From the IMG/VR virus record IMGVR_UViG_3300045988_117858, positions 16,865 to 80,864 of that record: 64,000 nt of DNA; one strand, written 5' to 3'. Made by a program: the position numbers and the translations under genes. Of this stretch, positions 664 through 50,472 are shown one piece after another. The DNA comes from a virus. Numbering within the stretch: the first letter of the stretch is position 1; the number at the start of each line of letters is the position of its first letter. The notes beneath the pieces were generated by a model. That model was not told where the DNA came from. It made no database searches and was given only the letters and a program-made list of their open reading frames with translations.

Positions 664-858
664 ATGGAAAATAAAGTACAACTACATAAACCACAACCGA
701 TAGACATAGCCGTTGCACTTGTAGGAATTGCAATGGCTATTATTGCGTTTATAAAGATACCGCAAGCCTTCATTTTAGAAGCATTATTGGTAATGATTAC
801 CGCTGTCTATATGCTTGCTTGCGTTGGATTTTTTGATGATGATACAGATACAGAATAA
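664..858 (+). CDS. small hydrophobic membrane protein (64 aa)
   Basis: ORF with AGAAGGAAG RBS; predicted TM helices; acidic C-terminus. Confidence 0.55.
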   Translation: MENKVQLHKPQPIDIAVALVGIAMAIIAFIKIPQAFILEALLVMITAVYMLACVGFFDDDTDTE

Positions 859-876
859 GAAAGAAGGTAAATGATT

Positions 877-1272
877 ATGAATTTTGAAAAATATAGAGAA
901 CTTGACACAATTAAATTGCATGGGATTTCTGCTGACATATTTCAAGAGAATGAACATGGAGAACTTATTGATCCTTTACGTGGAAAAGATGCAGACTGGT
1001 TAACGGGAAAATCTACATTAGCAAAAGCGGAAAATTTCAATTTTGAACAATTCGTTCTTAATGAAATCAATCAGCATTTTATTAACAATTTAGAAGCAAA
1101 AGATATTTGTATTTGTGGTAGTTGTTTTTCTTTTTGGAAACAAGAAGATGATGATGGTTTAGAAGATGATAATGGAAAATATTTTGTATCCTATGCCGTT
1201 AGTATCACAATTAATGGAAAATACATAGATGAAGAAGATTTATACGAACTATTTCCGAATTTTGAATATTAA
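877..1272 (+). CDS. hypothetical protein (~131 aa)
   Basis: Conserved junction motif GAAAGAAGGT upstream; second ATG (877) has the better spacing. Confidence 0.6.
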   Translation: MNFEKYRELDTIKLHGISADIFQENEHGELIDPLRGKDADWLTGKSTLAKAENFNFEQFVLNEINQHFINNLEAKDICICGSCFSFWKQEDDDGLEDDNGKYFVSYAVSITINGKYIDEEDLYELFPNFEY

Positions 1273-1291
1273 GAAAGAAGGTAAACACACA

Positions 1292-1900
1292 ATGAGAACA
1301 AAACAGAACAAAACAATCAAGATCTTATTAGTCGTAGCATTTATGTTTACGGCTTTTTTAATGATGGAAAATACTGTACACGCAAAGACAAAAAGAAGCA
1401 CGTACAGAACAATAAACGGCATTTATAACAGTGACGGCACAATTGACACGGCAGATGGTTATTGCTGGAAAGTTCGCAAGGAATCATATGCCTATCCAGG
1501 GACTACCGTTGTCACTGTAAAATTTAACACACACGGCACTAGAAACAAGCTTGATGATTCTATTGTAAAGATCACGGCAAAGAATAAGAATGTCCAACTT
1601 GTAAACGATTATATACGCAGAAATTATGACTTAAATGCCTATAAGGTAAAGTATATCAGCACTGGAAAACTAACGGATAAAATGATCCGTGAACGTGCCA
1701 CACGACATACAATTTATGTGGAAATTATCAAAAGTGTTTCTGCTGGAGGTAGACATGGAACGTATGGAAAAAACTACTATATTGCCTATAACAAACGTGT
1801 ACGCAAGGGAAAACACATAACAAGCTATTGTGTATGGAATCCTTGCAATAGTTATTGTGATGATGTAGAAGTCGTGGCAGATAATGGAAAAATCAGATAA
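1292..1900 (+). CDS. secreted protein with N-terminal signal peptide (~202 aa)
   Basis: RBS GAAAGAAGGT precedes ATG at 1292; N-terminus MRTKQNKTIKILLVVAFMFTAFLMMENTVHA is a signal peptide; Cys-containing mature part. Confidence 0.6.
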   Translation: MRTKQNKTIKILLVVAFMFTAFLMMENTVHAKTKRSTYRTINGIYNSDGTIDTADGYCWKVRKESYAYPGTTVVTVKFNTHGTRNKLDDSIVKITAKNKNVQLVNDYIRRNYDLNAYKVKYISTGKLTDKMIRERATRHTIYVEIIKSVSAGGRHGTYGKNYYIAYNKRVRKGKHITSYCVWNPCNSYCDDVEVVADNGKIR

Positions 1901-1917
1901 AAAGAAGGTTGGAAATT

Positions 1918-2151
1918 ATGACAACTGTTACTATTTACAGAAACAAAAGAAACGAGAACAAATATATAGAAGTCCATAACGATGGATATTATCACAACTC
2001 AGTAAAACAGTTTATGCAATGGAAGAAAGATCACAATTGGAATCAGCTTGCTAAACCTATCAGAAATGAAATGGGCGATCGAGTCTTACATAGATGGAAA
2101 AAAGCAAACTTGATGACGTTACTGGAAGATTATGAACTGATTACGGCTTAG
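1918..2151 (+). CDS. hypothetical protein (77 aa)
   Basis: Conserved junction AAAGAAGGTTGGAAATTATG; ATG at 1918 is the likely start rather than TTG 1909. Confidence 0.6.
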   Translation: MTTVTIYRNKRNENKYIEVHNDGYYHNSVKQFMQWKKDHNWNQLAKPIRNEMGDRVLHRWKKANLMTLLEDYELITA

Positions 2152-2169
2152 AAAGAAGGTATGGAAATT

Positions 2170-2481
2170 ATGAAAGATTATAGAACGATTATTGATAATG
2201 ATACAATAGAAATGTTTTGCACGACTTTAGATGATTACTTAGAAGATAGTTTTGAAGGCTGTATGTTAGATAACTATTTCTTTGATATTGGAAATAACAA
2301 TATGAGATGGGGCAGAGTTAAGCTAAGAAAGTACGTGATGATCTTAGAAAAGGGCTTGAATGAATGGTCAAGTGTCAACGAACTGTACATGACAGATAGC
2401 GAAAAGAAGTATAGAGAACTGTTAGATATGTACTATAAGGATCGTGAAGAGTATGAGAAAGAAAAACTGGAAACGGCATAG
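2170..2481 (+). CDS. hypothetical protein (103 aa)
   Basis: Conserved junction GAAAGAAGGTATGGAAATTATG; second ATG has proper SD spacing. Confidence 0.6.
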   Translation: MKDYRTIIDNDTIEMFCTTLDDYLEDSFEGCMLDNYFFDIGNNNMRWGRVKLRKYVMILEKGLNEWSSVNELYMTDSEKKYRELLDMYYKDREEYEKEKLETA

Positions 2482-2501
2482 AATAGGAGGTATGGAAGAT
2501 C

Positions 2502-2990
2502 ATGAGAACAGAAATCAAAGAAGCAAAAACATATTATATTTCAGATGATGGAATTTATTATACAGACAAATGGGATTGTATCCAGCATGAAAATTGGATC
2601 AAAGAAGATAATAGAAGAATAAATCTACAAGAACGCTGGAATAAATTGATTAACTCTTTACCAATGGAGCAAGGCGAATGTCCAGTATATCAAGAAGCAA
2701 GTACAGACTACAAATATACATATGTTACCATTAAAAATAAAAAAGAATTGGAAAAAATAAACGATATGTATACAATAGCAAGTCCATATCATCACAAGGT
2801 AGAGTATACGGGTAATTTCCCAATGATTTTAGTTATGGAAACAAATACGGAACTTTATATGGCTGATCTTGAAAAAAGTCATGTGAGATTATGTACATTA
2901 GACCATATTAAAAGTGAAACACTGTGGTATTGGAAAGAAATGGGATACGACATAACAATTACAAAGAAAGATAACCAGGAGGAACAATAG
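2502..2990 (+). CDS. hypothetical protein (162 aa)
   Basis: AGGAGGT RBS; clean ORF. Confidence 0.6.
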   Translation: MRTEIKEAKTYYISDDGIYYTDKWDCIQHENWIKEDNRRINLQERWNKLINSLPMEQGECPVYQEASTDYKYTYVTIKNKKELEKINDMYTIASPYHHKVEYTGNFPMILVMETNTELYMADLEKSHVRLCTLDHIKSETLWYWKEMGYDITITKKDNQEEQ

Positions 2991-2992
2991 AT

Positions 2993-3328
2993 ATGATTGG
3001 AAATAGATATGAATTGAAAAAAGATGAAGCAGAACTAAAAGAAATTGAAAATGATCTTGCAAAATATCTTAATGTGCCATTTGTAAAATGTAGCTACGAC
3101 AATGTAAATAGTCATAAGTATAAAGATAAGAATGAAATTGAATATAGAAATAAAGAAGCAATGGAAACTGGTTTATATGATATGTGTGATTACATTATTA
3201 ACTATGAAAAATACAATACGCTAGATGGCTATAAACAAAATAATGGCGGATACGATGGGGAGGTGTATGAATTGTTATATCTTAAGGGAAATGGAAATTA
3301 TATTGTGATTACCAATATCGCAGAATGA
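2993..3328 (+). CDS. hypothetical protein (111 aa)
   Basis: ORF starts 3 nt after previous stop; CCAGGAGG RBS lies within the upstream gene's end. Confidence 0.6.
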   Translation: MIGNRYELKKDEAELKEIENDLAKYLNVPFVKCSYDNVNSHKYKDKNEIEYRNKEAMETGLYDMCDYIINYEKYNTLDGYKQNNGGYDGEVYELLYLKGNGNYIVITNIAE

Positions 3329-3358
3329 TTTATAAGAAAACAAAGGAGTGTATATCAA

Positions 3359-3631
3359 ATGGAAATTTTAAAGATGACAAGAACAAACATGGTAGTGATT
3401 CAGACAGTAGAAAAGGAACAACAAAACACTTTTGATATTGGAAAAATCAAAGTCGCAGCCTTGCCACCGATCGCAAAGAAAGATCTTATCGCAGAACTTA
3501 AAAGCAAAGACTTCTGCGATGGAATGATCCATACGGCTATGCAATGTAGGTTGGAAGATCTGAACGGCTACGTGAACGTGTGGAAGTATGTAGCGTATAT
3601 CTTAGCGGTAGAATTGATGGAAAGATTATAA
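3359..3631 (+). CDS. hypothetical protein (90 aa)
   Basis: AAAGGAGTG RBS; clean ORF. Confidence 0.55.
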   Translation: MEILKMTRTNMVVIQTVEKEQQNTFDIGKIKVAALPPIAKKDLIAELKSKDFCDGMIHTAMQCRLEDLNGYVNVWKYVAYILAVELMERL

Positions 3632-3646
3632 AAGGGAGCTGGAAAT

Positions 3647-3766
3647 ATGGAAACTTCTTTTAAATTTGTAGATAGTGTAGGCAATATTTATTGGTATAAA
3701 TTTAATTCAGTTGACGAAGCTCGTCATTTTGCATATGTTCATGGCTTATGTTTCTTAGGTAGTTAG
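3647..3766 (+). CDS. small hypothetical protein (39 aa)
   Basis: AAGGGAGCTGG RBS 6 nt upstream; short ORF not in the supplied track. Confidence 0.3.
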   Translation: METSFKFVDSVGNIYWYKFNSVDEARHFAYVHGLCFLGS

Positions 3767-3793
3767 CAATGGCATAGAAGGAAGGTGGAAATT

Positions 3794-3970
3794 ATGATAA
3801 CAAGAAATACATATCCCGATGGTAGAACGGAAATTTTCTGTAACACGCCTGATGAGTATAACGACTTATGCTGTGAGTACGATCTTGAAGATTGCGGTAA
3901 CAGTGGAAAATACGTTGGATTTAGTTGGTCGCACGATGATAAGAACAATGTAGATGTCTATTATAAGTAG
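3794..3970 (+). CDS. hypothetical protein (58 aa)
   Basis: Junction motif GAAGGAAGGTGGAAATTATG; Cys-rich small protein. Confidence 0.5.
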   Translation: MITRNTYPDGRTEIFCNTPDEYNDLCCEYDLEDCGNSGKYVGFSWSHDDKNNVDVYYK

Positions 3971-3986
3971 AAAGTAGGTGGAAAGA

Positions 3987-4241
3987 ATGAGTCGCAGAAC
4001 GACAATGACAGCATTAGCGTGCCACGTAGAACGAAAGTATAATACTTTATACTTCACAGAAAATCCTCCGAACGCTGGAATTGATGATAGCTTGCATGGA
4101 TATAGATATTTCTTATTATATAAGAATACGTTCGGAATTTTTCGGAAATATAGAACGCAAGAAGAAGCAATTAACGGCATGACGGAAATTTTAAGAGAAG
4201 ATCCAACTAATCTATTCAATTTCTCTATGTGTCGTGCATAG
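3987..4241 (+). CDS. hypothetical protein (84 aa)
   Basis: Junction motif AAAGTAGGTGGAAAGAATG. Confidence 0.5.
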   Translation: MSRRTTMTALACHVERKYNTLYFTENPPNAGIDDSLHGYRYFLLYKNTFGIFRKYRTQEEAINGMTEILREDPTNLFNFSMCRA

Positions 4242-4428
4242 CTTATTACATAGCCAATTAAAGGCTTTTACTGTCTGTAATGAAGCAGACTACACCTTAA
4301 CGGAAATACTGGACTATTGAAGCTAATAGTTACTTTAAATGAACGGAATGACTGTACTACTGATTGCTAGTAGTGACGTATTGGAACGGAAAAACGGTGG
4401 CGTATGGTAGATAAAAGAGTGCTTTTAT

Positions 4429-4449
4429 CGGGCGGTTTAATTCCGCCCT
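4429..4449 (+). other. GC-rich hairpin (GGGCGG-tttaatt-CCGCCC) in a 290-nt non-coding region
   Basis: 6-bp G/C stem is unusual in this AT-rich genome; lies between genes 3987-4241 and 4539-5258. Confidence 0.35.
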
Positions 4450-4455
4450 CGCTAC

Positions 4456-4484
4456 TTTTCACGATGGAAATTATCGTGTATAAT
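4456..4484 (+). promoter_or_regulatory. putative sigma-A promoter (TTTTCA-17nt-TGTATAAT)
   Basis: Near-consensus -10 with upstream TG; 17-nt spacing; about 55 nt upstream of the 4539 gene. Confidence 0.4.
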
Positions 4485-4538
4485 ATAAGAGAACAGTTAA
4501 TATTTTAAAGTCCTAAATAGGCAGAAAGGTTGGAAATT

Positions 4539-5258
4539 ATGTACGAATTTAAAGAAATGATCTTGCCAGAACATTTTAACCATGCTTCATACGCTGGATT
4601 TTGCGTGAAGCCTGGAATGTTTTATGGAGTAGAAAAAGAAAGTGGAAAATTAGTTGCTACAACGGGCTGGAATATAAATGGATCAACAAACATTTACATA
4701 CAGCATGAACCAAAATCAAAATGGAATAACGACTTATGGGAAGATCTTTATGATGATTATGGAAAACCTTTGATCACAATTGAAAAAAATGACTTGCAAC
4801 GAATTAGTAGCAAGGTAAAAGAATTCCAGAGAACAGCAATGGATTTTGAAACGTGGGCAAATGTAAACGGATATACCGACGAATACTATGAAGATCTCAT
4901 TAGAGAAGAAATGGATCAGATAGAATCAGCTTATGAATGGTATTACTTTATGGAATATCCAGAATTTGTGATCCAGCTTTTAAAAGAACTCTGGGCTATG
5001 GAAAAAAATGTTGAAATTTTAATGGAAGATGGCTGTACTAGAAAAGAAGCAGAAAAGCATTTAAACAATGGCACAGTTGTTTATACATTAGAAGATTTTA
5101 CAGAAAATTTTGAATTTATGAAAAATTTTCATGAAGATGCAGATGAAATTGAAGCAGATAAGAAAATTAAGAAGATGTTGGAAACAAAAATTCCAATGGA
5201 TGGGTATAGTTTTGTAAAGTACGATGGAAAAGAATGGTTAATTAGTTATTGTTTATAG
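4539..5258 (+). CDS. hypothetical protein (239 aa)
   Basis: Junction motif AAAGGTTGGAAATTATG; clean ORF. Confidence 0.65.
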   Translation: MYEFKEMILPEHFNHASYAGFCVKPGMFYGVEKESGKLVATTGWNINGSTNIYIQHEPKSKWNNDLWEDLYDDYGKPLITIEKNDLQRISSKVKEFQRTAMDFETWANVNGYTDEYYEDLIREEMDQIESAYEWYYFMEYPEFVIQLLKELWAMEKNVEILMEDGCTRKEAEKHLNNGTVVYTLEDFTENFEFMKNFHEDADEIEADKKIKKMLETKIPMDGYSFVKYDGKEWLISYCL

Positions 5259-5276
5259 AATAAGGTGGTGGAAATT

Positions 5277-5615
5277 ATGAAATCATATAAAGAGTACGAT
5301 AGAGAATTTATTGGGGATAGTGATATTGCGGCTTTAATTTTTGTAGGCACAACAAAAGACGGATTGAAGGCGAATATCTTAAATTTTGGTTGTGATGGAA
5401 GATATAATGCTTATATTGTGGATGAGAACGCAAAGATCGGAGATCACTATACATTAGAGATGGAATTTGAAACATCATCAGGATTCAGGGCATGGCTCAA
5501 AATCTATGACGATGTAGGATTGATGGCAGATTACAAGGCAGACAAAATTAGAGTATATCGTGCTGGAGATTTTGGTTGCATTATTCAGCTTATCGGAAAG
5601 AAAGAATGTGAATAA
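5277..5615 (+). CDS. hypothetical protein (112 aa)
   Basis: Junction motif AAGGTGGTGGAAATTATG. Confidence 0.6.
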   Translation: MKSYKEYDREFIGDSDIAALIFVGTTKDGLKANILNFGCDGRYNAYIVDENAKIGDHYTLEMEFETSSGFRAWLKIYDDVGLMADYKADKIRVYRAGDFGCIIQLIGKKECE

Positions 5616-5629
5616 GGATGGTGGAAAAT

Positions 5630-6073
5630 ATGCTTAGATATAAAGATTATTACCATGCAATTACAAAAACAGATCACGGATTAGATATTGACGTAAACAA
5701 ATGTAATAATACTTGCAATCATCATTCTTATATAGATTGTAGTAGTTGCGATTGCAAAGATGGATGCTTTGGAAAATCGTTTGCCAAAGACACTTTAAAT
5801 GAATTCAAGAAACATCATTTTACATGGAAAGATATCGTACAAGTCAATGGAAAATTATATGAAGAAGAGTTCATGATTAGTGGTTTGATGGATGATAAAA
5901 ATACATATCAGATTGATGATTTTTTAGAAGCTGTAGCAAAGAAGTATGATGTTAGTCCGAAGGATATTAAGACATATACAATGGATAATATACCATTAAA
6001 TCCAACGGAAATTATTCTTGCCGGAGATTGTGGTTGCTATATTGACGGAACGCCTGAATGGTGTGTAGACTAG
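5630..6073 (+). CDS. Cys-rich hypothetical protein (147 aa)
   Basis: Junction motif GGATGGTGGAAAATATG; CNNTCNHHSYIDCSSCDCKDGC cluster suggests metal binding. Confidence 0.6.
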   Translation: MLRYKDYYHAITKTDHGLDIDVNKCNNTCNHHSYIDCSSCDCKDGCFGKSFAKDTLNEFKKHHFTWKDIVQVNGKLYEEEFMISGLMDDKNTYQIDDFLEAVAKKYDVSPKDIKTYTMDNIPLNPTEIILAGDCGCYIDGTPEWCVD

Positions 6074-16410: not shown

Positions 16411-16875
16411 ATGTCAGAAAATATTTATATTCACTACGGAAGTGATAAGTTTGAGAAAGAGTTGTTTATGTCAATTGTGAACAGAAACATGATTAACAAA
16501 CCATTTGGAGGTTTATGGGCATCGGATATAAAGGCGGATCAGCCGTGGGAGAAATGGTGTATTGATAATGATTTTAGAATTGATAAACTAGACAAAAACT
16601 TTAAATTTACATTGGATGATTCGGCAAATATTGTTGAATGGACAGCGAAAGCCGATTTAAAGCAGGTTCCAACGCAAGATCTATCGGGATATCTCCCAGA
16701 ATATTTATTTGATACAATGGGCGTTGTGCCAGATTTTGAGAAGATGGTCGAAGATGGAGTTGATGCAATTAAGCTTAATTTATCCAAAGGTGATTATGAG
16801 TTATATTATGAGCTTTACGGTTGGGGTTGTGATAGTATTCTGATCATGAATCCTGATATTATTAGACCATTGTAG
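16411..16875 (+). CDS. hypothetical protein (154 aa)
   Basis: GAAAGGATGG RBS; clean ORF. Confidence 0.6.
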   Translation: MSENIYIHYGSDKFEKELFMSIVNRNMINKPFGGLWASDIKADQPWEKWCIDNDFRIDKLDKNFKFTLDDSANIVEWTAKADLKQVPTQDLSGYLPEYLFDTMGVVPDFEKMVEDGVDAIKLNLSKGDYELYYELYGWGCDSILIMNPDIIRPL

Positions 16876-17027: not shown

Positions 17028-17978
17028 ATGGCAGCAACACAGTTTGAAGTTATTGAAACAGTAAACAATAATAACGCAGAAGAATCTGAAACAAAGATTA
17101 AAAGACGTAAGGATGGAAGTCCTAAATGGACTCGATCTAACAAACAAAAAGGCGTATCATCTTTAGTGTATCCGATCAAGGACAGAAAACAATTTGCAGC
17201 CTTTAATGCATATTTTAGAGACCAGATTGATAAATCGTACACAGAGTACAAACGATATGTAGCTGCCAGAAACAATCTTTTGGTTGCAGTTGGAAACAAT
17301 ACAGCATATCGTATCTCTGATATCGTCAGACTCAAATGGGGCGATTTATTAGACGATAAGACTCGTAAGCAGGAAAAGAAAACAAAGAAATTCAGAACTG
17401 TATACTTTAACGATTTGGTAACTGAAGCAGTGGATATTTTCTTTGAAGCTGTTGCAGGAACTAAATATGATGTCAAGATTGATGGCGAAGTGCCAATGGA
17501 TGATTATGTTTTTGGAACATGTAAGTCTGGATCAGGACACATGACTGAAGCAAATGCTTTGGATTTTGTTAAAAAAGGTGCTAAAGCAGTTGGAATTGAG
17601 GACAATATTGGTACGCATACATTACGAAAGAACTTTGTGTATTGGACACTTGTCGATCATAAAGATGATCAGAACGTATTGTATACACTTATGAGATTAT
17701 TGAATCATAGTAGCCCTGCAATGACGTTTTTATATGCTACAATTACAGAAGAGGAAACTCATGTGTTATTTGATGATATTGCTCAGACGTACAAGGATAT
17801 TATCAGCGGAGCATTTAACGGATTAAAGGAAAATGTTATTAATGTGAGTTATGATAGAGTTATGGAGATTATCAAGTGTGCTTATGAGACTGGTAAGGAT
17901 GATGCAGATCAAAATGATAGGGTACATGAGGACAATATGCAGGCACTAAAAGAGCTGCTGGAAGGAGTTATTTTATGA
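17028..17978 (+). CDS. tyrosine site-specific recombinase / phage integrase family
   Basis: AYRISDIVRLKWGDL (Arg I box), HTLRKNF (H-x-x-R), LNHSSPAMTFLYA (catalytic Tyr box); GAGAGGAGAG RBS. Confidence 0.8.
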   Translation: MAATQFEVIETVNNNNAEESETKIKRRKDGSPKWTRSNKQKGVSSLVYPIKDRKQFAAFNAYFRDQIDKSYTEYKRYVAARNNLLVAVGNNTAYRISDIVRLKWGDLLDDKTRKQEKKTKKFRTVYFNDLVTEAVDIFFEAVAGTKYDVKIDGEVPMDDYVFGTCKSGSGHMTEANALDFVKKGAKAVGIEDNIGTHTLRKNFVYWTLVDHKDDQNVLYTLMRLLNHSSPAMTFLYATITEEETHVLFDDIAQTYKDIISGAFNGLKENVINVSYDRVMEIIKCAYETGKDDADQNDRVHEDNMQALKELLEGVIL

Positions 17979-19677: not shown

Positions 19678-20694
19678 ATGAATAATAAAGAATTGATACA
19701 AAATTATATAGATTCTCACGTATCAGAATCACGTCGCCCAACATGGAATTGGTTATTAGATTCTGATATTGCGGACGACAATGAATCTGGGTTAACGTAT
19801 GCACCAGGTACAATCCAAGAGGCTATATTATCAGATACTAGAGGTAAAAAAACCAAAAGTATGAATTCTATTAAAAAAAGATATGACCAGCTCGTTAAAC
19901 TATATACTTATGCATATGAACAAAATTACATTAAATATAATCCATTTGTTAATGATAAATTTATAAACTTGCAATTAGCAGTTGATATATATTTTTCAAA
20001 TAGAGTTAATGTTAATTATGTTACACCAGATAAAATAAATGCGTTTATTTCGAATCTGATGTCGTGCAATGCATCAGCCGATACCAAATTGAATACTAGA
20101 TTTCACATTGTGAGTTTATATAATGGGATAAATGGAAAGGAGTTAAGAAATCTAAAATTCTCAGATATTAATCAAAATGATTTAACAATTTTTGGGAAAC
20201 CAGTCTCCAAAGATTTTATCGAGACATTGAATGAATATAAATTGAAAATGGGAGATACGAATATATATGATGATTTTGTATTAATACCACGAAAAAAATG
20301 TAATAATATAGAAGAATATCAAGCAGAGCAAAAGAGGATATATAATAATGTGCAGTCTCAATTAGAATTAACTGGTAACACTTTATCTTATGAAAAATTG
20401 ACAACCATTGATGTTATTAATTCTGGTTTTATACAATATTTAAAATCTAAAATGGATATCAAGGCAATTGCAGATTTATATTATATTAAATCAAAAGAAG
20501 GAATCGCACGATCTGTAATCGCACGTCAATTTAGTGATATTGCAATTGATTTTTATTATAATTATTATATATCATATAGAATAAAAAAGAAACAATTTAG
20601 CGATCGTCAAACGGTAATCGGTAAAAGTATTGGTTACCTATATAAAGACGAGGACTATAAGAATTATCGTGCACATCAAATAATGGCAGAATAA
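19678..20694 (+). CDS. hypothetical protein, possibly degenerate integrase-like (SAM-like N-domain)
   Basis: KRYDQLVKLYTYAYEQNYIKYNPF and GKELRNLKFSDI resemble integrase N-domain/box I, but catalytic residues are not recognisable. Confidence 0.45.
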   Translation: MNNKELIQNYIDSHVSESRRPTWNWLLDSDIADDNESGLTYAPGTIQEAILSDTRGKKTKSMNSIKKRYDQLVKLYTYAYEQNYIKYNPFVNDKFINLQLAVDIYFSNRVNVNYVTPDKINAFISNLMSCNASADTKLNTRFHIVSLYNGINGKELRNLKFSDINQNDLTIFGKPVSKDFIETLNEYKLKMGDTNIYDDFVLIPRKKCNNIEEYQAEQKRIYNNVQSQLELTGNTLSYEKLTTIDVINSGFIQYLKSKMDIKAIADLYYIKSKEGIARSVIARQFSDIAIDFYYNYYISYRIKKKQFSDRQTVIGKSIGYLYKDEDYKNYRAHQIMAE

Positions 20695-39577: not shown

Positions 39578-39952
39578 ATATGGCTAAGAAACAAAATAAA
39601 AATTTTAAAATATTTGGTGTGTTTTTGGAATATAAAAATATTCTGCTCAAATAGTTTTTGAGTACGCCAAAAGTGAGGTTTGTTATAGCACTCACTAAAA
39701 TCTATGTTATTTTGTCGGATTTATGTTATTTGTGGGTTTGGCAACTATAAAAAATAACAGAACTAAAGGAATTTAAACAAAAAAAATGAAAACAAGACAA
39801 GAACGTAAACAGGAAATAAAACGATTCTTTGATCGGCTGAGTCCCAGTGAATTGGACAGGCTGTTAGAAAGAAATGAAATTAATGACAAAGAGTCTGATG
39901 AGGCTCTTGCATATAGAATTATTAAAGAAGAAATTGAGAAAGGAGAGATATA

Positions 39953-40258
39953 ATGAACAACTTCTTATATATTGAATCACGGGAAGAAGAGAATACATCC
40001 CTCGATTCTAAACGTGTTTTATTGAATGAAGAAAATTACAAACATATTATTTCATCATTAGATCATTATCCACCGACGGCAGACGAAGTTAAGAAAGCAA
40101 TTTGTATTTTGACTGGACGATTGATCTACAGAAGCGTTTGGAATATGGAATCTGATATTGATAGTTTAAATATGAGTTTATCACCGCCAAAAGAAATGAC
40201 GGTTGCAGAAATTGAAAAGGAACTTGGTTATAAAGTTAAGATTGTAAAGGAGAAATAA
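39953..40258 (+). CDS. hypothetical protein (101 aa)
   Basis: AAAGGAGAG RBS. Confidence 0.5.
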   Translation: MNNFLYIESREEENTSLDSKRVLLNEENYKHIISSLDHYPPTADEVKKAICILTGRLIYRSVWNMESDIDSLNMSLSPPKEMTVAEIEKELGYKVKIVKEK

Positions 40259-40569
40259 TGCCAATGGCAAAAAAGAAACAAGGAATGTCGTTTGAAATGA
40301 TGATGCAAAATATGGAAATTAATCCAAGGCAATTGTATCGTCGTAGTTCGTGGAAGAAGACACGAACAACTTATGATTATGTGTTTATGATGTGCGAAGA
40401 AGAATTAAATGAGATTATTCCATTTGATAAAAAATATAAAATGAAACCACTCTTATGTAGAGACCAAAATGGAGTTATAACATTGGGATGGTTGCCTACA
40501 CAAGAGGATATTTTCGCAAATGATTGGGTTGAGCAAGGATGGGATTTTAACAGTAAAAGGAAGAGGTGA
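40258..40569 (+). CDS. small protein sharing a C-terminal W-x-P-x-x-E-D-h-h-A-x-D-W motif with the next gene (DUF2829-like?)
   Basis: GWLPTQEDIFANDWVE versus WIPLAEDVYADDWEI in the neighbouring gene. Confidence 0.35.
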   Translation: MPMAKKKQGMSFEMMMQNMEINPRQLYRRSSWKKTRTTYDYVFMMCEEELNEIIPFDKKYKMKPLLCRDQNGVITLGWLPTQEDIFANDWVEQGWDFNSKRKR

Positions 40570-40577
40570 ATAATTAA

Positions 40578-40877
40578 TTGAATTTTATAAAAGCAATGAT
40601 CGCAATAAAAAAAGACAAAACTACTATAAGAAGAGGCATTTGGGGAAAGGAAAAGTATTTGAAAATTTATTCGTCAGAATTAACTAATGTTTATTTTGAG
40701 TGTAATGATATGGGTGAATATAAGCCAGATTCAATTATTTTTTTATTTGATAAAGAAAACGCAGAAGTTTGGATACCTCTTGCGGAAGATGTATATGCAG
40801 ATGACTGGGAAATATATGTTGAATCGGTTAAAAAGCCAAATCAATCAAAAGCAAAGGTGAAGGAGAAAGAAGAATGA
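40578..40877 (+). CDS. DUF2829 / Tad2-like small protein (candidate anti-Thoeris signal sponge family)
   Basis: FIKAMIAIKKDKTTIRRGIW...WIPLAEDVYADDWEIY pattern as I recall for DUF2829; TTG start. Confidence 0.4.
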   Translation: MNFIKAMIAIKKDKTTIRRGIWGKEKYLKIYSSELTNVYFECNDMGEYKPDSIIFLFDKENAEVWIPLAEDVYADDWEIYVESVKKPNQSKAKVKEKEE

Positions 40878-41287
40878 AAGTGTTTTTAGGCGGAACATGC
40901 TCTGGATGGAAGTGGAGAGACCAGCTACAGAAGATGTTGGATTGTGATTATTATAATCCAATCGTAAAAAATTGGAGTGAAGAAGACCGACTGCGGGAAG
41001 TCAAGGAAAGAGAAGAATCTGACTATGTTCTGTATGGCATTACGAATGGTATTAAAGGAGTATACAGTATTGCAGAAGTAGTTGATGATTCTCATAAGCG
41101 ACCAGATAAAGTGATCTTTCTTAATCTCTATCAGGAACAAAAGAATAAAGAATCTAAGCAGATGAGCCACAGTTTAAAAGCAGTCGAAAATTTATTGAAA
41201 GAAAATCGTATTAAAGTATATTCTGGCGTACATGCTATGCAGGATGTTGCAGATTTTCTTAACTTAATGAATAAACGAAAGGGGTAA
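40874..41287 (+). CDS. nucleoside 2-deoxyribosyltransferase/LOG-like fold protein (putative)
   Basis: MKVFLGGTCSG...NP...SDYVLYGITNGIKGVYSIAEVV resembles the Y/FxxGxxF...GTxxExG pattern of the family. Confidence 0.4.
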   Translation: MKVFLGGTCSGWKWRDQLQKMLDCDYYNPIVKNWSEEDRLREVKEREESDYVLYGITNGIKGVYSIAEVVDDSHKRPDKVIFLNLYQEQKNKESKQMSHSLKAVENLLKENRIKVYSGVHAMQDVADFLNLMNKRKG

Positions 41288-41293
41288 AGAAGA

Positions 41294-42248
41294 ATGAAAT
41301 GTTTTTATCATGTTGATCAGGACGGCATCGTATCTGGTTTCTATGTCAGAAAAGCTTGCGAACAGCGAGGTTTAGAGTTTAAACCAGAAGACTTCCGAAA
41401 AATTAATTACGGCATGAAATTCCCGTTTCATGACATTGAGCAGGATGAATTTGTGTTTATTGTAGACTACAGTATTGAGCCAGAAGAGATGTGGCAGTTG
41501 CTCAGTATTACAAAGAATGTATTTTGGATCGACCATCATCAGTCTACGATTGAAGCGTATAAAGATTTCAAGTGTGATGTAAAAGGAATCAGAATTACTG
41601 GAACGGGTATTTCAGGAGCGAATTTGACATGGTTATATTTTAAATATATGTGTGATGAAAATTGGGAGTAAATTGAGAGGACGGATGAGAAAAATGTAAA
41701 AAGATTACTCAATATATATAAATATAAAGCAGATTATCCAAAACTGGCAGAATATACAGCCATGTGGGATACATTTTATTTTGGTGAAACGTCAAAACAA
41801 TTCGTAAAAGCATTTCACTATGCATTTGAATCGTATGATTTTGATGCGTTAAGTCCATTGTTAAACACGTTAAATAAAGATCAAGGAATTTATGAAGCAG
41901 CAAAAATTATTGGTGATATGATAGCAGATGGCTTATCAATTATTGAGTATTTAGCAGCAAATGCAGAACAATATCTTAGAGCATATGGTTTTGAAACCAT
42001 ATTTGAGGGACATAAAGTCTATGCAATCAACAGAGCGTTAATCAATTCTGATTTCTTCGAATCTATTGATGCTTCTAAATACGATATGTTTATCGGTTTT
42101 TCATTCAATGGAAGTATGTGGTAATATCAGCTACGATCCGCAGAACAAGATAAAGTAAATGTGTATGAGCTTGCTGTGAAATATGGTGGTGGCGGTCATC
42201 CAAATGCAGCTGGGTTCAGATGTGATAAATATGTATTAGGAGTGTGAT
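41294..42248 (+). pseudogene. NrnA-like DHH-DHHA1 phosphoesterase (nanoRNase/pAp phosphatase family) interrupted by two in-frame TAA codons
   Basis: HVDQDGIVSG (motif I), WIDHH (DHH), YGGGGHPNAAGF (DHHA1) all lie in one frame spanning 41294-42248; stops only at 41669-41671 and 42122-42124. Confidence 0.6.
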
Positions 42249-42250
42249 GT

Positions 42251-43054
42251 ATGTCAAGGAAAAATACAAGAGAAATTGAACTTGCTTTTAGTAAAAACAG
42301 AGATCCAGATTGGGAAGCCGATGTGGAAATTTATAGAAGAAGAAAGTTCGAAGTAGTGCGTGGTATTTGTCTGGGAGATGAGTTTGCTGAAATTGAGTCT
42401 TTAGAATACAAAAATTGTGACGAGTTAGATGAAATGTATTATCGTTTTGATTATAATTTAAAAATACTTATGCAGTCTTATTTGTATGAATATACAGATT
42501 ATGTGCCAATCGAAACAATGCATATTACATCTCCTGCAATATTGTGTTGTGATGAAATTGTATTAAAAAACGGTGAGAAAATTTCTATTGATAACATATG
42601 TATTGATAAATCAAATGGCAATGAAGTTTATAAATTATATTCTAATAGTACATATACAGATGATGTATATTATGAATCTACTAAAGCATTAGTTTATGAA
42701 TTGGCTAGTAAAGATGTTTGCAAGGCTATACATATAATGAAAGATATGATGGACAAAGCGTATATAAAAGCAAGAAATGAACGAAGCATACATCCTTTTA
42801 TTAGCCACTTGTTTAACGACCCTCCAATTCCATGTATTAAAAATAAATATTCTATACATGATTTAGTAATGGGTACATTAAAATGCAGTGGTGATATTTA
42901 TAAAGAAATAAACAAAGAAGTCCCAAATGCTATAGATATGATTGTGCCTCATCCTGGAAGACATGCAGAGTATTATTTTGGGTTAGATTATACAGATGAA
43001 GTAGAGCAATTTATTAAAGAACAGGAGGCTAAGAAATGTGAAGAAACTAAATGA
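42251..43054 (+). CDS. hypothetical protein (267 aa)
   Basis: TAGGAGTG RBS. Confidence 0.55.
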   Translation: MSRKNTREIELAFSKNRDPDWEADVEIYRRRKFEVVRGICLGDEFAEIESLEYKNCDELDEMYYRFDYNLKILMQSYLYEYTDYVPIETMHITSPAILCCDEIVLKNGEKISIDNICIDKSNGNEVYKLYSNSTYTDDVYYESTKALVYELASKDVCKAIHIMKDMMDKAYIKARNERSIHPFISHLFNDPPIPCIKNKYSIHDLVMGTLKCSGDIYKEINKEVPNAIDMIVPHPGRHAEYYFGLDYTDEVEQFIKEQEAKKCEETK

Positions 43055-43589
43055 TGAACAGCGAAAGCTGATTGAAGATAATTATTCTTTGATTTGGCAT
43101 TTGCATGAGAAGTATTTTACAAAATTTAAAGATTTTGATACATATATGGATCTTGGTCGTATGGCAATTTGCAAAGCAGCATTAAAATGGGATGAGTCTA
43201 AAGGTAATTTTGGGACGTATTTTAGATGGGTATTACAGTCAGAAATTAATAAATATTATATAAAATGGCATAGCCCAACAGAGAAAATGAACAGAAATGC
43301 GGAATCATTGGATGCACCTGTTGACGAAAGAGTTGACGCAGAAGAATTAACAATTGGTAGTTTGCTTGTGAGTAACGATGACATAGAGAGTCAAGCACTA
43401 ACAACAGTATATTATCAAGGAGAATTTAACAAATTATCAGACAAGCAGAAGAAAATTATATATATGTTACTTGATGATATTGAGCATAAATACATAGCCA
43501 AAGAATTTGGAAAGAGTATTCAATGGGTAAGTTGGCAACTTGGTAATATTAAAAAAATAATGCATAGGGCAAAGGCGGTGAGATCATGA
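43038..43589 (+). CDS. sigma-70 family sigma factor (phage-encoded, regions 2 and 4)
   Basis: TYMDLGRMAICKAALKWDESKGNFGTYFRWVLQSEINKY (region 2-like); C-terminal HTH; GTG start; paralog of 49930-50472. Confidence 0.6.
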   Translation: MKKLNDEQRKLIEDNYSLIWHLHEKYFTKFKDFDTYMDLGRMAICKAALKWDESKGNFGTYFRWVLQSEINKYYIKWHSPTEKMNRNAESLDAPVDERVDAEELTIGSLLVSNDDIESQALTTVYYQGEFNKLSDKQKKIIYMLLDDIEHKYIAKEFGKSIQWVSWQLGNIKKIMHRAKAVRS

Positions 43590-44419
43590 CAATTGAAGAA
43601 GTGAAAGATTACATAAACTCGTCTACAGAGTATGATTTTTTGCGAGATTATCCTCATAAAATCGCTTTTCTCACACTAGGTGGAAGTTATGCTTACGGAA
43701 CAAATACAGAGGATTCTGACATTGATTTACGTGGTGTTTTCCTTAGTGATAAAAGAGAGATTTTGTTGAATAATAATCCAAATAATCTTGAAAAGACAGA
43801 CGATCATAAAGATGTTGATACTGTGTTACATTCGCATATTAAGATGATTAACATGCTTGCAAAAGGTAATCCTACATATTTAGAACTGTTGTATTTTGCG
43901 CCAGACCGTTATTTGTGTGTATCCGATATTGGTATGGAGTTGATCAAAAATAGAGATATGTTCTTATCTAAGAGAGTTTATCATGCATATAAAGGATATA
44001 TATGTGATTGCCTGACTCGAACGAGTTTTAAGTATTATAAAAATAAAGATTCAGAGAAAGAAAAGCAAAAGGCGGAACGATACGCTAATAAATCAATGAT
44101 GCACGCAGTTCGATTATTGTTACAGGGCATTGAATTATTGCATAACGGAACAATGTTAGGATCTATGGATGACATAGGAAAAGATCTTGTAAAGATCAAA
44201 GAAGGATATAATAGTACGCATAAAACATATAGATTTGGCAAACACAATGAGCATACAGAATATTTCCCAAATCAGTCATACGATGTTTTTATTGAAGGAT
44301 TACTTTATCAATTTGATTATGATTATATGAATACTGATTTGCCAGACGAACCAGACTGGGATCGTATCAATAACTTCTTGATGACAACAAATGAACGAAT
44401 TGTGAGAGGAATGGTGTAA
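43586..44419 (+). CDS. Pol-beta-superfamily nucleotidyltransferase (pfam10127-like)
   Basis: LGGSYAYGTNTEDSDIDLRGVFL is the GS-x9-13-DxD NTase active-site motif. Confidence 0.65.
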   Translation: MTIEEVKDYINSSTEYDFLRDYPHKIAFLTLGGSYAYGTNTEDSDIDLRGVFLSDKREILLNNNPNNLEKTDDHKDVDTVLHSHIKMINMLAKGNPTYLELLYFAPDRYLCVSDIGMELIKNRDMFLSKRVYHAYKGYICDCLTRTSFKYYKNKDSEKEKQKAERYANKSMMHAVRLLLQGIELLHNGTMLGSMDDIGKDLVKIKEGYNSTHKTYRFGKHNEHTEYFPNQSYDVFIEGLLYQFDYDYMNTDLPDEPDWDRINNFLMTTNERIVRGMV

Positions 44420-49929: not shown

Positions 49930-50472
49930 ATGTCGTTGAAATTAAATGACGAACAGAGAAAATTGGTAGAACAAAATCATAATTTGATTTACTCTGCTAT
50001 GACAAAATGCGGTATCCGCAGACAAAATTTTGATGACTATTATGGATTCGCTGCTATTGGGTTGTGTAAGGCAGCAATTGATTATGATGAAACACGGTCT
50101 AAATCATTTTCGACATATGCGTATTTATGTATACAAAATGAAATAACGGTATATAACAAATACAGATTTCGGCAGAGAAGAAAGGGCGATATGAATACTA
50201 TTTCATATAATCATATGTTAGATGATTGGGATGAAGACAAAAATGAAAATTCATTTCTTTTAAAGGATGAAGAAAATTTTGAAAAAAATATTATTTTCAA
50301 GTTGAATTTTCAAGATAAATGTTACACACTAAATAATAAGGACAGAATGATTGTTGATTTAAAATCAAAAGGTTATACATATCAAGAAATCGCAAAAATG
50401 TTTGGCACATCATTTCAAGCGATACAACAAAAGATTAAAAGAATGCGATCAACAACATTTTCCAGATTATAA
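49930..50472 (+). CDS. sigma-70 family sigma factor (phage-encoded)
   Basis: DDYYGFAAIGLCKAAIDYDETRSKSFSTYAYLCIQNEI (region 2.1-2.4) and C-terminal HTH YTYQEIAKMFGTSFQAIQQKIKR (region 4). Confidence 0.65.
   Translation: MSLKLNDEQRKLVEQNHNLIYSAMTKCGIRRQNFDDYYGFAAIGLCKAAIDYDETRSKSFSTYAYLCIQNEITVYNKYRFRQRRKGDMNTISYNHMLDDWDEDKNENSFLLKDEENFEKNIIFKLNFQDKCYTLNNKDRMIVDLKSKGYTYQEIAKMFGTSFQAIQQKIKRMRSTTFSRL

Follow-up and report, generated by a model that had tools for sequence, protein, structure and literature searches.

A DHH-DHHA1 phosphoesterase gene of a gut phage, probably inactivated recently by two nonsense mutations private to one strain

Two in-frame TAA codons interrupt what is otherwise a complete gene for a DHH-DHHA1 phosphoesterase in a gut phage, and the question raised by this locus is whether the gene has been inactivated or is still expressed at full length by readthrough or suppression of the stops. 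The gene lies at 41294-42248 on the plus strand of a 64,000-nucleotide (nt) stretch of DNA (hereafter the window), which covers positions 16,865 to 80,864 of the IMG/VR record IMGVR_UViG_3300045988_117858. The source genome of ~160 kb is AT-rich (33.7% GC) with all genes on one strand, and the phage is distantly related to Bacillus phages of the BCP78/TsarBomba type and to Clostridioides phage pCD1602_4. Our answer, to which we assign a probability of about 0.85, is that this genome carries a strain-specific pseudogene, recently inactivated by two nonsense mutations, of a phosphoesterase that selection maintains and conserves across the phage species.

A sequence-only reading of this locus had placed the motifs HVDQDG, WIDHH and GGGGHPNAAGF in one frame that is broken solely by TAA at 41669-41671 and at 42122-42124 and is free of frameshifts, and all of this was confirmed. 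Translation gives a single frame of 318 codons, with internal stops only at codons 126 and 277 and a terminal TGA at 42246-42248; the coordinates were verified against the raw sequence. The full-length product proposed in that reading was right in frame but not in size, as the 318 codons include the terminal stop and the protein would have 317 amino acids (aa), not 318. The homology claimed around both stops also holds: the PHROG 4771 'DHH phosphoesterase' profile matches residues 3-312 (E=2.1e-36) and spans both of them, and full-length orthologues can be aligned over their whole length, with identities of up to 97%. The program-made list of open reading frames (ORFs) splits the frame into 41294-41671 (125 aa) and 41762-42124 (120 aa), and the stop at codon 277 lies directly upstream of the conserved Y-x-L-R-S and GGGH substrate-binding motifs. 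The elements of the gene are as follows:

41294..42248, plus strand: DHH-DHHA1 phosphoesterase gene, probably a pseudogene; 318 codons in one frame, two internal TAA codons, terminal TGA
41309..41326, plus strand: DHH motif I, HVDQDG (D8, D10), residues 6-11 of the translation
41525..41539, plus strand: DHH motif III, WIDHH, residues 78-82 of the translation
41603, plus strand: third private substitution, G>A, GCG>ACG (Ala104Thr); A in no relative, G in 86, T in 5
41669..41671, plus strand: nonsense codon 126, TAA, from C>T at 41669; relatives have CAA (Gln); +4 context TAAA
42122..42124, plus strand: nonsense codon 277, TAA, from G>T at 42122; relatives have GAA (Glu); +4 context TAAT
42185..42217, plus strand: DHHA1 motif GGGGHPNAAGF, residues 298-308; 3' of both stops and hence untranslated

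The two stops are private to this genome. Scanning IMG/VR with the N-terminal fragment returned 55 loci, 54 of them from the same phage species with 81-99.6% nucleotide identity over the gene, and the DHH ORF is uninterrupted in all of them. Codon 126 is CAA and codon 277 is GAA in all 45 loci that could be aligned without indels. When all loci are pooled, including those fetched later, 91 gene copies from relatives are available, and C at 41669 and G at 42122 are present in 91/91, while a stop at either site is present in 0/91. Sense codons at these positions, which the sequence-only reading had proposed to look for in related phages, are therefore found in every copy, as CAA and GAA. In the protein database, over 50 clusters are full-length (315-317 aa), one of them with 710 members, and the orthologues inspected have Q and E at the stop sites; a megablast search with the DHH locus against INPHARED phages gave no match. 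Moreover, the gene was found in 32 of the 33 loci reached via an unrelated anchor gene, the 33rd contig stopping short of it, and it is therefore a core gene of the phage species. The ratio of nonsynonymous to synonymous substitution rates (dN/dS) among intact alleles is 0.03-0.12, a sign of strong purifying selection.

A truncated product of 125 aa identical to that of the window is also found on two contigs, ENA ERZ27260743 k119_120613 (92,931 bp) and Logan ERR1136713_79 (4,249 bp). Identity to the window is 100%, over 20.4 kb in the former and 4.2 kb in the latter, and the second fragment is present on each. Since both contigs match the window completely across the gene, sequencing error, which the sequence-only reading had named as the finding that would overturn it, is unlikely. 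The stops are private and reproducible, and probably real, in a gene that is constrained elsewhere. No other gene of the window is interrupted when compared with relatives (18.6-61.8 kb and the first 12.5 kb, ~55 kb), and in the reverse comparison ~7 stop-containing alignments were seen among ~1,700 gene-by-relative comparisons of the relatives, in no case as a pair within the same gene. This excludes a generally error-prone assembly. A search for further pairs of ORFs that share a frame and are separated by one stop left ordinary gene junctions, which are uninterrupted relative to the relatives.

The inactivation appears to be very recent. The nearest intact alleles (L001, L003 and L004) differ from the window at 4 nt within the gene, and two of these differences are the stops themselves (CAA>TAA and GAA>TAA). 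Relative to these alleles, the changes in the window are as follows:

41603, plus strand: G>A, Ala104Thr
41669, plus strand: C>T, Gln126stop
41861, plus strand: C>T, synonymous Leu, also present in 15 relatives
42122, plus strand: G>T, Glu277stop

All three private changes (A104T, Q126* and E277*) alter the protein, whereas two intact alleles, in the comparison with L010, differ by 3 nonsynonymous and 20 synonymous changes (Fisher p=0.008). In addition, the block 39910-43778 is near-identical to L004 with 6 differences, and 4 of them fall within the 955-nt gene (binomial p=0.036). This clustering of substitutions, together with the protein-altering character of all the private changes, is the signature of a constraint lifted very recently.

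Disabling alleles of the gene are not limited to the window, and the others found are listed below:

L177 (921-1868): GAA>TAA at codon 64 (Glu64)
L175 (1321-2248) and L176 (193-1120): 20-nt frameshifting deletion, from two sources (ENA and JGI records)
P0057: frameshifted, an NCBI protein
P0064: C-terminus replaced
P0068: internal deletion

P0060, which looks N-terminally truncated, was not counted as a loss-of-function allele, as it lies 92 nt from a contig end. These further independent loss-of-function alleles indicate that the DHH gene is dispensable and that its loss is recurrent, while intact alleles still dominate. Recurrent loss of this kind is in keeping with an accessory function that benefits the phage more in some hosts than in others.

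In the window, 47 of 86 genes end in TAA, which is the main terminator, 25 in TAG and 14 in TGA. The two internal stops stand in the commonest TAA stop contexts, TAAA (18 genes) and TAAT (15 genes, as many as TAGA). With a codon that regularly ends genes here, in surroundings typical of genuine stops, termination at both positions is likely to be efficient. ARAGORN found no tRNA in the 64-kb window and none in the fetched loci of close relatives. One tRNA-like element is nevertheless present upstream of the DHH gene:

33566-33703, plus strand: tRNA-like element, Rfam RF00005, 46.4 bits against a gathering score of 29

The acceptor, D and T arms of this element are perfect, and its anticodon stem GGCAA/TTGCC encloses ~74 AT-rich nt. 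With introns allowed, ARAGORN reads it as 'tRNA-Tyr(ata)' with a 67-nt insert at position 32/33, and the other possible 7-nt loops, when enumerated, give only CTA, CAA or CAT, each with a non-canonical A33. The element occurs in ~45 relative loci at 92-100% identity, with some uncompensated stem substitutions. Read on the minus strand, the insert has GGAGG-N7-ATG, with which a called ORF of 46 aa (33611 to 33471) begins, and we know of no splicing mechanism for so short a tRNA insert in bacteria or phages.

With these data, the alternatives to a double-nonsense pseudogene can be weighed together. It is hardly credible that the two TAAs are sequencing or assembly artefacts hiding an intact gene: although the truncated product is known from two records only, which may share the same reads, and the gene is intact in every other genome, two assembly pipelines (the ENA k119_ contig and Logan) agree perfectly over 20.4 kb and 4.2 kb, substitution errors seldom survive consensus, two errors each creating a TAA in one gene would be an odd coincidence, and similar errors are seen in no other window gene. 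The sequence-only reading had left two possibilities, very recent inactivation by two nonsense mutations or expression by programmed readthrough or suppression, and the former is upheld by the intact allele only 4 nt away, whereas the latter is not supported and comes near to refutation. Full-length expression would require a phage or host suppressor tRNA reading UAA, or a recoding signal. The stops occur in no relative, TAA is the main terminator, and both internal contexts are ordinary stop contexts; furthermore, no single suppressor would restore the wild-type protein, as one stop replaces Gln and the other Glu. What speaks for such expression is the otherwise intact frame with all its catalytic motifs, the tRNA-like element, and a tRNA with the anticodon TTA, a UAA reader, which ARAGORN predicts at the end of a tRNA array in the distant relative L143 (IMGVR_UViG_3300031867_000045, 20171-20243, plus strand). 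The suppressor tRNA that had been proposed as a check was, however, not found by ARAGORN within the window, and the tRNA-like element was rejected as a candidate, as no parse of it gives TTA and it is equally present in the ~45 relative loci of a species whose sampled DHH copies are all intact. Known phage stop-codon recoding reassigns TAG or TGA with suppressor tRNAs, affects many genes, is conserved among relatives, and avoids the recoded codon as a terminator. The locus studied here shares with it the in-frame stops within an otherwise intact phage gene, but it differs in that only one gene is affected in the ~55 kb compared, the stops are absent from relatives, genes of the window end in TAA more often than in any other stop, and no suppressor tRNA was found in the window. 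Likewise, re-initiation after the first stop is unlikely since the ORF that follows starts at ATG 41762 with no Shine-Dalgarno sequence upstream, and a fragment started there, even if made, would lack the catalytic centre.

Another explanation is that the double knock-out was positively selected, with a host defence sensing the phosphoesterase or its activity and the loss alleles being escape mutants; for instance, a guard or decoy system might fire on nucleotide-pool depletion, and the second stop might remove a harmful truncated product of the first. We regard this as unlikely, but it has some points in its favour, namely the concentration of 4 of 6 substitutions of the 3.9-kb block in the gene (p=0.036), the three private changes that all alter the protein (p=0.008), the at least five further independent loss-of-function alleles in other samples, and the counter-defence surroundings, with two Tad2-like genes upstream and Tad3 beside homologues. 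Decoy immunity that detects anti-defence proteins has also been documented for Panoptes, although the phosphoesterases tested, Apyc1 and AcrIII-1, did not trigger it (PMC11974786). Relaxed constraint after a first neutral knock-out, however, predicts the same pattern, and intact alleles vastly predominate (the 710-member cluster and 91/91 IMG/VR copies). Equally doubtful is the wider proposal that the two stops and the at least five other loss alleles in the same phage species reflect recurrent selection to lose the enzyme in hosts whose immunity senses it or its activity, with the intact enzyme being a so far unnoticed component of a tRNA-repair or counter-defence module of phages (RlaP, CCA-adding enzyme, DHH and Thg1). 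Some observations do count against a plain recent pseudogene: two nonsense mutations among only 4 differences are unlikely under random mutation (p ~0.02 by our calculation), the two identical records possibly come from one sequencing run, and the tRNA scan covered the 64-kb window, the remainder of the source contig being ~29 kb and that of the genome ~70 kb. As ~6% of the possible single substitutions in the DHH gene yield a stop, a second stop among three further changes is unremarkable, with a chance of ~0.17 (~17%) once the selection of the locus for having a stop is allowed for.

On the double-nonsense reading, the changes C>T (Gln126>TAA), G>T (Glu277>TAA) and Ala104Thr would have arisen after the split from alleles that are otherwise 99.6% identical. 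Translation would stop at codon 126 and yield a 125-aa fragment with DHH motifs I-III. Because this fragment lacks D159 of motif IV and the whole DHHA1 substrate-binding lobe, it would presumably form no active enzyme. The intact enzyme might serve an accessory counter-defence function and, therefore, be dispensable in some hosts. The result is of use in a negative sense, in that the stops do not appear to be programmed and there is no evidence for a new genetic code or recoding mechanism; the pseudogene itself, as one strain's dead copy in a known phage gene family, matters little.

The intact protein belongs to a divergent family of the DHH-DHHA1 superfamily. Its matches to the Pfam families DHH (PF01368, 20.0 versus 28.1 bits) and DHHA1 (PF02272, 21.2 versus 25.9 bits) are both under the gathering thresholds, and many homologues have precomputed matches to PF01368 and PF02272. 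The AF2 model of an intact orthologue (P0001) has a predicted local distance difference test score of 91.5 and a predicted template modelling score of 0.83, with a two-lobe DHH/DHHA1 architecture. Foldseek matched this model to NrnA/Pde2, TmPDE, DhhP, GdpP, PggH and RecJ at 12-16% identity, with a probability of 1.00 for NrnA, TmPDE, GdpP, PggH and RecJ. In a family alignment of 39 sequences, D10, D58, W78, D80, H81, H82, D159, G299, G300, G301 and H302 are invariant, and D8 is nearly so (at least 90%). The frame of the window encodes all catalytic motifs, namely I (D8/D10), II (D58), III (D80-H81-H82) and IV (D159), of which D159 falls after the first stop. A profile search of PDB sequences aligned the C-terminal W-x-Y-S-L-R-S...GGGGH region to the NrnA homologues 4ls9, 5jju and 5cet.

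The label 'NrnA-like' in the sequence-only reading is thus appropriate at the level of the DHH-DHHA1 superfamily, by fold and motifs, but not as a statement of NrnA orthology, as P0001 scores 16.2 bits against a cut-off of 350 for the NCBIfam NrnA equivalog NF053633. The family resembles NrnA, Pde2, Rv2837c and TmPDE (TM1595), which are stand-alone bacterial DHH-DHHA1 nanoRNases, pAp phosphatases and pApA phosphodiesterases, in fold and size (Foldseek E ~1e-8) and in keeping the DxD, D, DHH, D and GGGH motifs, while its low identity sets it apart from them. One orthologue is labelled by JGI as 'NrnB/cAMP/cGMP phosphodiesterase (DHH superfamily)'. The phage proteins of PHROG 4771, for example those of Pseudomonas phage EL, Caulobacter phage CcrColossus and Brevundimonas phages, have the same two-lobe DHH and DHHA1 architecture and a length of ~300 aa, and they differ from the window copy in that the latter carries two nonsense codons; by tblastn, only distant phage DHH genes were matched, at 22-28% identity. 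The intact enzyme probably works as NrnA and the related bacterial enzymes do, hydrolysing short 5'-phosphorylated nucleotides or RNA ends with the help of Mn2+. A literature search for a tested function of a member of the phage DHH family, or for a characterised anti-defence enzyme in it, found only a prediction: the DHH phosphodiesterases of jumbo phages were predicted to counter the cyclic-nucleotide signals of SMODS and type III CRISPR systems (Iyer et al. 2021, PMC7824862).

The genes around the DHH gene bear on this role. Those with domain matches in the window are listed below:

40258..40569, plus strand: Tad2-like domain protein (103 aa), Pfam PF11195, 34.2 bits against a cut-off of 25
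40578..40877, plus strand: second Tad2-like domain protein (99 aa), Pfam PF11195, 45.3 bits against a cut-off of 25
40874..41287, plus strand: nucleoside 2-deoxyribosyltransferase-like protein, weak match, Pfam PF15891, 28 bits against a cut-off of 30
43586..44419, plus strand: RlaP RNA-repair nucleotidyltransferase, Pfam PF10127, E=1.9e-23, 1.3 kb downstream of the DHH gene

The tandem Tad2-like pair upstream may constitute an anti-Thoeris or anti-signalling islet. Downstream, the DHH gene is followed by a gene for a 267-aa protein without assigned function, a sigma-like factor and RlaP, which adds one or two nucleotides to damaged RNA 3' ends (PMC12776372). The sigma-like factor overlaps the end of the 267-aa gene, and its homologue directly follows the DHH gene in the L235-L246 clade; sigma-like factor paralogues are encoded at 43038-43589 and 49930-50472 on the plus strand and are 29% identical by tblastn.

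The neighbourhoods of DHH homologues at 39-54% identity show the following arrangements:

L055, L181, L247, L249, L253, L256, L257 and L261: DHH after RlaP, a 313-aa protein (absent in some) and a CCA-adding enzyme
L181, L250 and L251: Thg1 at most 3 kb from DHH
L260: RtcB upstream of DHH
L247, L250, L251, L258 and L260: tRNA genes near DHH
L252 and L254: Tad3 directly downstream of DHH

In L181, RlaP, the 313-aa protein, the CCA-adding enzyme and DHH are followed by Thg1 within 669-5778. The Tad3 genes of these two distant lineages, whose products have the domain of a type I Thoeris inhibitor (PF25185, E ~1e-34), lie at 2766-3527 in L252 and at 6906-7601 in L254. The 267-aa protein downstream of DHH in the window was compared with the 313-aa protein of the RlaP-CCA clusters, and no similarity was found.

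The linkage to RlaP, CCA-adding enzyme, Thg1 and RtcB suggests that the DHH family belongs to a phage tRNA-repair module, and no paper describing a link between DHH and a phage tRNA-repair cluster was found. An accessory counter-defence function is plausible for the intact enzyme from this gene context. The anti-signalling role proposed in the sequence-only reading is possible and would fit the two Tad2-like genes upstream and Tad3 beside the homologues, while RNA or tRNA end processing, which the neighbourhood counts support somewhat better, is at least as likely as the degradation of defence signals. The likeliest intact role would be RNA/tRNA-end or nanoRNA processing alongside RlaP, the CCA-adding enzyme and Thg1, with hydrolysis of defence signalling nucleotides as the alternative. 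As with the phage counter-defence phosphoesterases Acb1, Apyc1 and AcrIII-1, this is a phage-borne phosphoesterase located in an accessory region by families of Thoeris antagonists and recurrently lost. Acb1 has a 2H fold and Apyc1 a metallo-β-lactamase fold, and the DHH fold is unrelated to those of Acb1, Apyc1 and AcrIII-1. For the DHH family, activity on cyclic nucleotides is a prediction, and more lineages place it in RNA-repair clusters with RlaP, CCA-adding enzyme, Thg1 and RtcB. As a family that is core and yet repeatedly knocked out, and that is found near tRNA-repair enzymes and Thoeris inhibitors, it is a reasonable counter-defence candidate. More useful as leads than the pseudogene are its family's linkage to a repair module, the Tad genes nearby and the tRNA-like element with its insert.

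Beyond the DHH locus, the identity of the window to its nearest relative shifts sharply at 39740-39910 and from 43779 onward, between near-identical blocks and stretches of ~5% divergence. These shifts show that the phage population recombines and is highly mosaic, with a different closest relative every few kb. The cargo of the early region also varies among relatives and includes ArdA, HicA/HicB, T5orf172 and Bro-N. Moreover, the window encodes a Band_7/flotillin-like protein of 486 aa (31286-32746, plus strand) and a tyrosine recombinase of the Phage_integrase family (17028-17978, plus strand), both in an otherwise large, virulent-type, myovirus-looking genome. The early region of the species was also found on a contig of 295,982 bp (L172, ENA ERZ23880433 NODE_7), nearly twice the usual ~160 kb, and this 296-kb contig could be a concatemer, a chimera, or an integrated or plasmid form.

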